Positions 32,701 to 46,942 of a DNA stretch of 64,000 nucleotides are shown piece after piece. The first letter of the stretch is position 1; every line of letters begins with the position of its first letter. Below the pieces are notes generated by a model. That model worked only from the letters and a program-made list of their open reading frames with translations. It was not told the DNA's origin and ran no database searches. Origin of the DNA: Lama guanicoe (taxonomy: Eukaryota); the NCBI GenBank assembly GCA_013239625.1, contig MU053652.1, forward strand, positions 7,773,027-7,837,026, in the 5' to 3' direction. Both the position numbers and the translations under genes were made by a program.

Positions 32701-34271
32701 GATATATAGAATAAATTCCAGGGGACCCCAGGCAAAGACAAAGAATCCAGGCTCGGGGACCCTGGAGGAACACTAGTCTGGGGCACAGAAGTAGATGTAA
32801 GTATTAGTCCCTAAGGCCCCTGCCTAGAGGAGGGAGAAATCTCCTAGGACCTAACCTTAGATGAGCATCTCTGAGGTTCCGAGTTTAAAATACCTTCCAT
32901 ATATATTAAATCTGCTAGATAATGTGATGCCTCTGGTGTAGAAATCAAGATTTGTGTGTCTGTTTCTTTCTTTCTTTCTTTCTTTTTTATTCACGCAGAG
33001 AAGTGTAAAATGTAAAATCTCAATATTAAAGAAAGGGGAGGGCCAGTCAGGGCAGACTGAAAAGGATGTCCTTGCCTTCCCGGACTTGGCCACCTGCTTC
33101 TCCCCAGTCTCTTGCACTGGGCATTTTCAGTTGCTTTGCTCTACCCTCATCCCACCATGGAGGGACATCGGTGTTCCCTGGCCTTTGTCCCTTTACACAC
33201 CCTCCCCCAAGAGAGGTTTCACCCACTCTGGTGGTTTCAAATACCTAACTGGGCTTCGACTTCTGTGGTCCTTCAGACTGGAGCTTGCATCCTGGCTCTG
33301 CCCTTTGTCTCCCAGCGGGGTGCTTTGGGAAAGTTGCTCAGCTCCCCAAAGGTCTGAGTTTCTTCAGATGATAACAGTTTTAGCATCACAGAGTGTTGTG
33401 GAGATTCAGTGAGAAATTGCCCATATGCTCTTAGCACAGGCTGGACCCATAGCAAGTATCCCAAAATGAGAGCTAAAATAAAAGCAACAGCACCATACAA
33501 AAAAGTACATGGCCTTTACTGTGTACTGAGTACTGCTCTAAAAGCTCCATATACATCAGCTCATTTAATTCTCACAACAGATGAAGAAACTGAGGCACAA
33601 GGATGTTAGGTAATTTGCCCAAGCTCACAAGTAAATGGTGGGCATAGAACTCAAACTCAGTTAGTCTGGCTCAGAGACCATCTTCTCAAACTGGGTTTGA
33701 CTATTATTGTTACTCATTGTTAATGATACTGTCCTATTCTCTCCCATGAGAATCAGCCTTAAAAAAAAAAAAAAGAAAGAAAAAAAACCTCTCTGGGTAC
33801 CCCACAGGCACCTCAGACACAACATACTCAAAAGAGTCCCCAAAGCCAGCTCTCCACCTGAGCCCCTTCCACTGCCCCAGGGAGACACCTGGCTTCACAT
33901 TAGGTTCTTCCTTGCCCTTGAACCTCCCACCTCCAAGCAATCAATGATTGATTTCTATTTCTATCCTCTTCTCTCCAACCCTAATTCTTCCCGCATTCAG
34001 GACTTCATCATCTCTGCTCTAGGTAACAGTGACAACCTTCTGTTTTTCCTGCCTCCAGTTTCCAAGACCCAGTTTTTCCTCAATTCATCTTCTCTACAGA
34101 TTTAGAATACCAGTCTGGCCATTTCAATCCTGCCTGAAAAGGATGAGTTATGTGTTCACTAGCGTAGCACAGAGGACCCTTCATATCTGACTGCTGTCTA
34201 CCTTTCCAGCCTCAACTCCCACCTCTCGCCAAGTTCCACTTCCCCGGCATATCACCACTCACCAGACTCAC

Positions 34272-34326
34272 TCTCTCTCTCTCTCTCTCTCTTTCTTTCT
34301 CTCTCTCTCTCTCACACACACACACA
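34272..34326. repeat. (TC)n(CA)n compound microsatellite
   Basis: Visible repeat. Confidence 0.9.
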
Positions 34327-39684: not shown

Positions 39685-39818
39685 ATCCTATATTTTTTTT
39701 TATTTATTGGGGGTAATTAGGTTTATCCTTTTTTTTTTTTAATGGAGGTACTGGGGATTGAACCCAGGACCTTATGCATGCCAAGCACGTGCTCTACCAC
39801 AGAGCTATACCCTCCCCC
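39685..39818 (-). mobile_element. Vic-1-like SINE in or near the SPAM1 3' UTR, 14-bp TSD
   Basis: TSD tgatgctctcttaa at 39671-39684 and 39819-39832. Near-consensus tRNA-Ala-like body. Confidence 0.92.
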
Positions 39819-40107: not shown

Positions 40108-40405
40108 CTAAACTATTAAATGGAAAAATGAAAAACATATCAAAACATAAAGCATGGATACAGGAAATCTAATAAGCGCTGAACTTGTACTTGAAAAGGT
40201 TTTTTGGTTTTTTTGTGTTGAATATATCACTGAGTGGAAGTGTTGTTCCAGTAACACTCTGACAGCCCTCTTGGGTGTTGTTGGACGTGGCTTCTGCTGA
40301 ACACCTGGCTGTGAGGCACCCACTGAGATCTTTCCCATAAACACATGGAGACACTGTGGCAGGTGGTGTGAAGGATGAGATATTGCTGAATGTGGCAGAG
40401 AATCT
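40108..40405 (-). pseudogene. SPAM1: Decayed former coding tail of SPAM1, now 3' UTR (Cys-containing extension plus GPI-like signal)
   Basis: In frame after the TAA: RFSATFSNISSFTPPATVSPCVYGKDLSGCLTARCSAEATSNNTQEGCQSV. Shifted frames then give WNNTSTQ*YIQHKK and NQKTFSSTSSALIRFPVSMLYVLICFSFFHLIV*. Confidence 0.75.
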
Positions 40406-40798
40406 TTATTTCCACATAGGAGAACAACCTGAGTTTAGAAGGGCATCTATACAAACATCTTTGGCAATACACACATGAATGGTATGAATGTTTGTTACAT
40501 TAGCTGTCTCCTTACAACGGGTGCTGGGATAACAACTGCAATAAAATTTTTCAGAGAATTGTTGCAGGTCTTCAATTGTGGGCTTCCCATGTACCATGTA
40601 TTTTCCATCTTTCCCAGTTTGAATAGCAAAATTCATTGGGTTCAGGTGAAGATAGTCACTTGAATTCCAGTGTTTCCTTGCACACACTCCTTGTTTCTGG
40701 CAAAGCACCTGGCTACACATTTTGGCTGCTAGGGTGACATTGACTATGTAAGGATTCAGTGTCTTCTTCATGTAATTGTTTAGGTCCATGCAAGATTG
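40406..40798 (-). CDS. SPAM1: Hyaluronidase PH-20, last coding exon (130 codons plus TAA)
   Basis: Acceptor ttttacag|CAA (exon starts 40798). QSCMDLNNYMKKTLNPYIVNVTLAAKMCSQVLC...FYCSCY...VCIDAL matches PH-20. Phase 0 join to the previous exon. Confidence 0.96.
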   Translation of the reverse strand, partial: QSCMDLNNYMKKTLNPYIVNVTLAAKMCSQVLCQKQGVCARKHWNSSDYLHLNPMNFAIQTGKDGKYMVHGKPTIEDLQQFSEKFYCSCYPSTRCKETANVTNIHTIHVCIAKDVCIDALLNSGCSPMWK

Positions 40799-45234: not shown

Positions 45235-45324
45235 CATACTTAGGCTTAAATTGGCGCTTCCCCACATTATAATTCCAGAGACGCCTAGAGCAACACTTTC
45301 ACCAACTGTATGCACAAGGTCATC
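45235..45324 (-). CDS. SPAM1: Hyaluronidase PH-20, 90-nt middle coding exon
   Basis: tttgccag|GATGAC...AGTATG|gtaagt. Encodes DDLVHTVGESVALGVSGIIMWGSANLSLSM. Confidence 0.96.
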
Positions 45325-45787: not shown

Positions 45788-46741
45788 CTGAGAGAGGTAT
45801 TTCAGAGACACATCAGTAAAAACTGGACGGGCATATACAAACACTGGAAGTGGACTTCCGGCTTTGGCTGCTTTAGACATCCTAATTGCTTCCTGGATAC
45901 GATTACGAGCAAAGAGTGCACCCCGTAGAGAAGACTTTAACTTGTTGGTCAAATAAATAGATGGGAAAAGGGCAGTGCTTTCTTTCCACAACCAGTCAAG
46001 CGCAGCATTTCTTCTTTTTTCTATTTCAGGGCAACTTCCATCGTAAGTAGGTTGGTTATAATTATGATTGTAACAATCAGGAAAAAGATAATAACCCCAT
46101 AAGTAATTTGGCCGATGTAGTTTTCCCACCTTTAAAGTCTCTAGCATGAAACTCTTTCCTGCCTTTTCAAACTCTACTTTGGCTACTTTGGCAGCCTCTG
46201 AGTCAGAAAGTGTTGTATTTTGTTGCCGAACTAGCTCAATAGACTGATTCTTGTAAATATCTTTCGGTTTCCAGTTTCTCTCCCAGGTAGGCCTCCAGTT
46301 TTCCCAGTCAATGACAGCCAAGCCCACGTTATCGACTTGAATGTAATAGGAAATGTCCTTTATAGCTTTGTCCAAATGCCTTTCTAAGGATCCCTTCTGG
46401 GGGATTCCTCCATGCATATTTTCGCCTGTTACTTCATCTATGTGAGGATAGTAGCCAAGTCTATCAGCATAAAATAATGCAATAGGTTGTCCTCTGACAC
46501 CTTTCCGGGGGCTTCCCACCAAAGAGAAGAGTCTCAGATCTGGAGGCACCTTAAATCTATCACAAAGTTCAGTTGGGGCATTCCAGGCCCAGAGGAAAGG
46601 GGTATTTGGAATAAGAGGGGGTGATCTGAAGTCCCGAGTCAAACAACATGGAATCAGAAGGAATGTGAACACTGCCTGGGGTGCGCCATTGGACCCAACA
46701 AAACTCCTTAAGGAGATGGGCTGGAGCCTTAATTCCTCCAT
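45788..46741 (-). CDS. SPAM1: Hyaluronidase PH-20, first coding exon (318 codons, signal peptide plus GH56 catalytic domain)
   Basis: MEELRLQPISLRSFV...FLLIPCCL...WAWNAP...VIDWENWRP (catalytic D-x-E at 46301-46309)...WGYYLFPDCYN...KYLSQ|gtaagt. ATG at 46741 has strong Kozak context (A at -3, G at +4). An adjacent in-frame ATG at 46744 has weak context. Confidence 0.97.
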
Positions 46742-46942
46742 CATGAAGAGCAATGACTATGAAAAGCACTTGTTGCTCCTACACACTTTAGTTTATCCAA
46801 TATTTGATGCAGGATATAAGCACAGAAGAGAGACAGTAGAATGAAGCCACTTTGATGAAAAGATATAATGATGATTTATATTTAATATTATTCTTCTTGC
46901 TTTTGTGTTTTAGGAATGTTTTGCAAATTGCTTCTTCTATAA
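46742..46942 (-). other. SPAM1: 5' UTR part of the first coding exon of SPAM1
   Basis: Strong acceptor on - strand: long T run then cag|TTATAG, with AG at 46944-46943. No ATG upstream of 46744 in this segment. Confidence 0.75.

Follow-up and report, generated by a model that had tools for sequence, protein, structure and literature searches.

PH-20, the product of SPAM1, is routinely called a GPI-anchored sperm protein, a description that stems from work on guinea pig, primates and mouse, and bovine testicular hyaluronidase is a fragment of the same protein. Two forms of PH20 have been described, one GPI-anchored and the other soluble, without the GPI linkage, and rHuPH20 is a product without the GPI region (PMC13059328). 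In the human protein, this region has been placed at residues 484-511, with cleavage after Ser490; its deletion turns the cell-bound enzyme into a secreted and active one in Pichia, where a construct cut at residue 484 is reported to give 6.8-fold less extracellular activity than one cut at 491 (PMC9136067). In the bull, SPAM1 is reported among the most abundant membrane-associated sperm proteins, as judged by pooled mass spectrometry (PMC13052758). Positive selection on SPAM1 has been reported in all 16 mammals of a comparative study, none of them a camelid (PMC6267676).

In this work we describe the SPAM1 locus contained in a 64-kb window (the whole stretch of DNA that was analysed), whose PH-20 reading frame ends earlier than that of its nearest full-length relatives. 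We consider it probable (about 0.8) that a nonsense change in the last coding exon of SPAM1, on the stem of the camelids, gave rise to a fold-complete, tail-less PH-20 of 479 aa, and that the DNA of the former tail persists as a decaying relic.

The identity of the gene is clear from several comparisons. The large-exon product is identical (100% identity over 100% of the length) to "hyaluronidase PH-20 [Vicugna pacos]", of 479 aa, which is the best of 1469 proteins found at E <= 0.001; among the matches listed (the best 120 of the 1469), the named top matches are all PH-20 and the closest non-camelid one is 74-76% identical. The Pfam family PF01630 (Glyco_hydro_56) is matched with E 2.1e-141 and 471 bits (against a cut-off of 23.2), over residues 43-374, with the whole profile (positions 1-335 of 335) covered. 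Among solved chains, PH-20 9jub is the best match (E 1e-193) and covers only alpaca residues 38-441, and HYAL1 2pe4 is found at E 4e-99. A tblastn search with five PH-20-type proteins found one hyaluronidase gene only in the window, and the SPAM1 locus count in the window's own assembly (2.05 Gb) is one, with no second SPAM1 copy carrying a full tail in that assembly. Two further GH56 loci are located on SPAM1's contig and three on another contig, forming the usual two hyaluronidase clusters, with SPAM1 in the second. The gene is the single-copy alpaca orthologue of SPAM1/PH-20, a member of glycoside hydrolase family 56. A full-tailed SPAM1 paralogue was considered and rejected, given the one locus in the genome and the one gene in the window.

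The two GH56 genes on SPAM1's contig are found upstream of SPAM1 exon 1, at distances of 35 and 56 kb, in the same orientation (G000 contig C1339, with loci labelled L004, L006 and L008). Their large exons are both open, with products that are 45% and 40% identical to whale PH-20, and they are presumably the counterparts of HYAL4 and of HYALP1/HYAL6, going by the human gene order.

The gene is formed by three coding exons (Table 1), all with canonical AG/GT borders. The first one, which is 100% identical to residues 1-319 of P0001, holds the codons for a hydrophobic, signal-peptide-like N-terminus and for the greater part of the GH56 catalytic domain, with D146-W-E148 among them, and ends at the donor CAG/GTAAGT (45787/45786). 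The middle exon is bordered by the acceptor ...TTTGCCAG (ending in GCCAG) and the donor ATG/GTAAGT, and the last coding stretch, which is entered at ...TTTTACAG/CAA, accounts for the rest of the GH56 domain and for the EGF-like, Cys-rich domain at the C-terminus. Two adjacent ATGs start the frame, for a total of 479 or 478 codons, and the arrangement of 318+30+130 codons put forward in a sequence-only reading of this DNA fits these exons when counting is started at the second ATG. The stop itself appears as "tta" on the plus strand, that is, TAA on the minus strand, directly preceded by ...NSGCSPMWK. It is genuine and closes a three-exon frame identical letter for letter to the RefSeq Vicugna pacos PH-20. 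The exon mapping also agrees with the sequence-only reading in its placement of the stop within the last coding exon, and the DWE motif and the C-terminal cysteines through Cys464 that it had listed are found as D146-W147-E148 and C459/C465 in the 479-aa numbering (C458/C464 in the 478-aa numbering).

Table 1. Features of the SPAM1 locus, in positions of the window.
Feature	Position	Strand	Description
SPAM1/PH-20 first coding exon	45788..46744	-	319 codons from first ATG, 318 from second
SPAM1 middle coding exon	45235..45324	-	30 codons, DDLVHTVGES...LSLSM
SPAM1 last coding stretch	40409..40798	-	130 codons, QSCMDLNN...NSGCSPMWK
TAA stop	40406..40408	-	next base A (TAA-A context); aligns with Glu of whale/ruminant PH-20
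AATAAA hexamer overlapping stop (..TGG AAA TAA AGA..)	40405..40410	-	possible poly(A) signal
In-frame ancestral tail relic	40253..40405	-	51 codons, RFSATFSNISS...SPC..GC..RC..GCQSV; now probably 3' untranslated
Out-of-frame relic of the last ~20 ancestral codons	40194..40252	-	YWNNTSTQ*YIQHKKTKKPF, internal TGA
TAG ending the 78-codon open frame after the TAA	40169..40171	-	from frame reading

Some additional elements were observed around the end of the gene. The nonsense change also completes the AATAAA hexamer of Table 1, a candidate poly(A) signal, and the next AATAAA/ATTAAA hexamers on the minus strand are located 665-704 nt downstream of the TAA. A tRNA-Ala-like element (anticodon GGC, 39743-39814, minus strand) is called by ARAGORN. 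In the direction of the gene, an A-rich run and three poly(A)-signal hexamers come after it, and the element has the appearance of a tRNA-derived SINE, inserted in the gene's orientation ~600-700 nt downstream of the stop. A (CT)23 microsatellite (34267-34313) and an A27 run (33761-33787) are both downstream of SPAM1. On the protein side, the camelid proteins all have an additional cysteine, C474 (40424-40426, minus strand), at five residues from their C-terminus (...NSGCSPMWK), and are without three residues that relatives have near this position; this cysteine sits in the low-confidence end of the predicted model, with no obvious partner cysteine.

The position of the stop can be compared with what other mammals encode there. 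In an alignment of the last exon with 15 relatives, the residue facing the camelid TAA is Glu in eight, Lys in four, Asp in two and Gln in one, the Glu being present in the three whales (E483), the three ruminant PH-20 proteins (E481/E484), the macaque (E476 of P0054) and the sloth. This is consistent with the GAA>TAA change proposed earlier, and the bovine tail quoted in the sequence-only reading is borne out in the alignment by the Bos protein (P0165). In the simplest reading, a GAA codon became TAA in the camelid stem, where the ancestral codon is one that we infer. The closest full-length relatives, the PH-20 of whales and ruminants (e.g., P0003 and P0165), are 74-76% identical overall, share the three coding exons (tblastn) and extend ~71 residues past that Glu, reaching 551-554 aa (lengths found in at least 14 whale species and in many ruminants). 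The ~71 residues absent from the camelid product comprise first a polar stretch rich in Ser/Thr and then a segment with four Cys, and the relatives have a polar end, ...NETTY or ...NQTTY, whose alpaca counterpart is, in contrast, frameshifted and interrupted. In the ruminant "PH-20-like" paralogue (P0005/P0022) a long tail is retained in frame with all four tail cysteines replaced, and cat, jackal and hyena PH-20 retain two of the four; because of these cases, the four-Cys motif would not be generally required.

The DNA behind the stop still bears the marks of the old tail. The residues encoded by its first 51 codons are identical to those of two whales at 33/51 and 35/51 positions (65-69%), figures to be seen next to those of the tails of whale and cattle (29/50, 58%) and of whale and cat (19/45), and all four tail Cys codons survive in it, with no Pfam match for the post-stop peptide. 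The likeness to PH-20 in frame 1 ceases after ...GCQSV. The final NWKNTSSQLHIQNKKNETTY of the whale protein has its counterpart in another frame, as the interrupted peptide of Table 1, and a tblastn search with the last 45 residues of two whales found this counterpart in frame 3 (E 8.7e-6 in a small search, 40% identity over 25 residues), with a stop inside. Because the end of the relic matches in another frame and contains a TGA, a frameshift just after ...GCQSV and a stop in the ancestral frame can be placed there. The sequence-only reading had described 78 further PH-20-like codons; the frame is indeed open for 78 codons, but the likeness is confined to the first 51. The use of this 78-codon open frame as a sign that the stop is recent or unreal was rejected, given that the homology quits the frame after 51 codons. 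In its present form, the tail DNA is decayed, with at least a frameshift and a TGA besides the TAA, as expected of untranslated sequence. The 51 codons are, somewhat oddly, in an unusually good state, which could be due to slow change, to a stop of younger age or to residual constraint.

The structural predictions place the lost tail outside the folded enzyme. In the AlphaFold2 model of whale PH-20 (from a 92-sequence alignment), residues 35-471 are confident and residues 472-554, which correspond to the whole tail, have pLDDT <50. The alpaca model (93 sequences; mean pLDDT 89.3 and pTM 0.87) is confident over residues 35-472, with pLDDT <50 only at residues 1-34 and 473-479, and the camelid product is thus predicted to retain the entire fold, ending ~7 residues beyond it. 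The loss is that of a polar, predicted-disordered and fast-evolving tail, which makes it a modest quirk of the lineage and not the striking loss of a membrane anchor.

The body of the enzyme has a different record. In a set of 90 non-camelid sequences, 65 columns are invariant, of which alpaca PH-20 keeps 64 (the sole change being Leu to Val), and of the 99 columns conserved at >=90% it keeps 96. D146 and W147 (invariant) and E148 (>=90% conserved across the alignment) are all kept, as are the invariant cysteines C61, C224, C238, C377, C382, C388, C436, C459 and C465. Between alpaca and camel, 461/479 residues are identical, with zero indels, and the 1,437-nt body is without lesion in four species. 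The enzyme body looks maintained, and the tail not, a pattern that points to selection on the folded enzyme. We infer that camelid PH-20 still works as a neutral sperm hyaluronidase, with its activity probably retained.

The stop is found throughout the camelid proteins available, every one of which is a genome-based prediction. Six members form the cluster at 90% identity around the alpaca protein (alpaca RefSeq entries of 479 and 478 aa, a Camelus dromedarius/ferus entry of 478 aa, C. bactrianus entries of 479 and 478 aa, and a MetaClust entry of 655 aa); five of them end at ...NSGCSPMWK, and the RefSeq models of three Camelus species share this end with alpaca. The divergence between Camelini and Lamini has been put at ~25 My with a mitochondrial clock, or at 11 My from fossils (PMC1939714). 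Since models from separate assemblies of both camelid tribes end alike, the stop is not an error of assembly but an old feature that is fixed in camelids. All 106 sampled 31-letter words of the segment 39900-40900 are present in 14 DNA runs (from five studies, under four organism labels), to which we give little weight, each having been flagged as a possible source of the sequence; six RNA or RNA-like runs contain fractions of 0.13-0.23 of these words, which make no statement on expression or isoform. In metagenome contigs, the exact 26-nt pattern around the stop had no matches, and a scan guided by the last-exon protein found its pattern in 70 stretches, none of them encoding a relative. The short camelid product is already known as a RefSeq annotation, and a discussion of this short SPAM1/PH-20 end was not found in the literature, as judged by titles and abstracts.

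The question of membrane attachment was addressed with a home-made hydropathy scan (12-residue mean Kyte-Doolittle values over the tails of 27 named orthologues), which is not a trained GPI predictor. A hydrophobic stretch (1.6-3.8), lying at or near the C-terminus, was found in guinea pig, rabbit, vole, two strepsirrhine primates, two bats and armadillo. In the same scan, such a stretch is absent from the long tails of whales, ruminants, cat, jackal and hyena (0.5-1.4, with the last 20 residues polar), and also from the short tails of pigs, peccary, pangolins and camelids. Camelid PH-20 carries no C-terminal GPI signal, as the structured part is followed by only eight residues, SGCSPMWK, with no hydrophobic run; at the other end of the protein, a hydrophobic stretch (...AVFTFLLIPCCL..., residues ~24-36) was seen by eye, and the model has low pLDDT at residues 1-34. 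The scan agrees with the earlier statement that the product has no hydrophobic C-terminus, but not with the idea of a loss relative to a GPI-anchored ancestor, since the long polar tails of the nearest full-length relatives are also without a hydrophobic end. The polar long tail appears to be the background state of the camelids' nearest relatives and, because these long tails have no GPI signal, camelids would not have lost one that their relatives have. The "anchorless" enzyme of the sequence-only reading stands in its fold-complete product without a hydrophobic end, but not in the implied loss, as no GPI signal was lost relative to the nearest relatives. Additionally, lacking a hydrophobic end does not prove solubility, because bull SPAM1, likewise without one, is membrane-associated (PMC13052758), and the odds are roughly even between a camelid PH-20 that is freely soluble in the acrosome and one that is held at the membrane by other means. 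A wider proposal, that camelids and, independently, pangolins and pigs have a PH-20 without covalent or tail-mediated membrane link, acting as a freely soluble acrosomal enzyme, and that the GPI signal was lost before hoofed mammals, carnivores and pangolins diverged, is one that we hold as tentative and rather doubtful.

Several other explanations have to be weighed against an old camelid nonsense change. That the stop is an error of sequencing or assembly, or a polymorphism carried by a single animal, has a practically negligible probability: one and the same last residue is found in the models of alpaca (in two RefSeq versions), C. dromedarius, C. ferus and C. bactrianus, the further lesions in the old tail frame are consistent with long disuse, and the 14 DNA runs, being possible sources themselves, add weak support. 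The stop could otherwise be the first step in the decay of camelid SPAM1 towards a pseudogene, a fate compatible with a fast-evolving reproductive gene whose nearest non-camelid match is 74-76% identical among the matches listed; nevertheless, the intact 1,437-nt frame and the canonical splice sites in four species, together with the retention of the catalytic D-W-E, of every framework cysteine and of 64 of the 65 invariant columns, the confinement of lesions to the DNA behind the stop and the complete predicted fold make this a very improbable course. A further explanation, very unlikely as well, is that the TAA is bypassed, by splicing to a downstream exon or by readthrough, with a C-terminal extension (possibly hydrophobic) being kept. 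Here the evidence comes mainly from the 655-aa legacy model (P0123, found in MetaClust only), which exits the exon after ...ALLNS and continues into ALILGYLLWVQPVL... at 33273-33472, and the good preservation of the post-stop frame over 51 codons would also fit. That segment (on the minus strand) is an open stretch, single-copy in the genome, that begins with the hydrophobic ALILGYLLWVQPVL and has a good acceptor, with a pyrimidine tract and then AG. However, the donor required, CAG/GTTGTT, is poor when compared with the GTRAGT consensus (both real donors are GTAAGT), alpaca has CAAGCT, with no GT, at the next junction of P0123, and the extension shows no C-terminal hydrophobicity over its length. 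The current RefSeq models of all four species have 478/479 aa, with no other camelid isoform in the cluster. Readthrough would not restore the ancestral tail, whose frame is broken by the frameshift and the TGA, and it is made unlikely by the A that follows the TAA, TAA then A being the strongest termination context in mammals. The 655-aa model was rejected as a real isoform on account of its weak donor, of the next alpaca junction without GT and of its being superseded by newer models, and we favour the view, with the gene model as its basis, that there is no splice around the TAA and that the 3' end of the transcript is as drawn.

The remaining alternative accepts the stop and gives it a purpose: an adaptive truncation that freed PH-20 from attachment through its tail and produced a soluble acrosomal enzyme, a natural analogue of rHuPH20. 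The product stops just after the folded body and near the cut of soluble human PH20; removal of human residues 484-511 makes the cell-bound enzyme secreted and active (PMC9136067), rHuPH20 is without the GPI region (PMC13059328), and tail loss is recurrent in pigs and pangolins. Against these points, the lost tail is not a GPI signal and nothing observed shows tethering by it, bull SPAM1, which bears the tail, is membrane-associated without a hydrophobic end (PMC13052758), and predicted-disordered, fast-evolving tails are the kind of region that is lost neutrally. We regard adaptation as unlikely, and the loss of the tail was probably tolerated rather than adaptive.

In the history favoured here, that of a tolerated nonsense change on the camelid stem, a one-base change would have turned a Glu codon into TAA before the split between Old World camels and South American camelids. 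With a stop located in the last coding exon, the mRNA is predicted to be spared by nonsense-mediated decay, and the product would be a 479-aa precursor in which a hydrophobic leader and the complete catalytic domain are followed by the Cys-rich C-terminal domain and ~7 floppy residues at the end. The DNA of the old tail would have become 3' UTR and then begun to decay, acquiring the frameshift and the TGA in the old frame.

The predicted C-terminus of PH-20 varies strongly between mammalian orders, and the camelid form is the shortest (479 aa, as in pangolins), one that would have arisen by a nonsense mutation with a still-readable relic downstream. If camelid PH-20 is active and soluble, it constitutes a natural experiment that tells how much C-terminus is needed by the enzyme, with a bearing on the retention and release of sperm hyaluronidase and on the design of soluble therapeutic hyaluronidases; if, on the other hand, the tail is dispensable everywhere, we would be looking at the ordinary trimming of a disordered tail in a fast-evolving reproductive gene. 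The wider proposal of a GPI signal lost early and of freely soluble enzymes, if true, would also mean that membrane anchoring of PH-20 is not a general requirement of mammalian fertilisation.

The short-tailed systems nearest to the camelid one are found in the same superorder, in the PH-20 of pig, warthog, peccary and pangolin. Beyond the last conserved Cys pair, the proteins of pig (NP_999176, listed together with accession CAC83973.2; 493 aa), warthog (493 aa) and peccary (491 aa) have another 26-29 residues (29 in the pig), and those of two Manis species (479 aa) have 14, the number also found in camelids. A short tail is not unique to camelids, but the end points and end sequences of these proteins are unlike the camelid's and, because of these differences in the protein comparison, the shortenings in the pig group, pangolins and camelids are best taken as separate events, which suggests that shortening has occurred at least three times in this superorder.

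The PH-20 of human and other primates shares with the camelid protein the PF01630 domain, the catalytic D-W-E and the cysteine framework, and the camelid stop aligns with Glu476 of the macaque protein (P0054), a few residues before the cut of soluble human PH20 and the GPI region. If macaque numbering is taken as human numbering, as we assume here, the camelid end corresponds to residue ~475, and by analogy with the human constructs it may carry a cost in activity or secretion. This end is shorter than that of the shortest active human construct considered here, 484 (PMC9136067). The camelid product ends after a complete predicted fold and before any hydrophobic region and, like rHuPH20, has no hydrophobic C-terminus; unlike the engineered rHuPH20, its truncation is natural and fixed, with no GPI signal removed. 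The soluble sperm and testicular hyaluronidases of guinea pig and bull are forms of PH-20 without a membrane link, as the camelid product may be, but they are made after translation from a full-length precursor, whereas the camelid short form is encoded in the genome.
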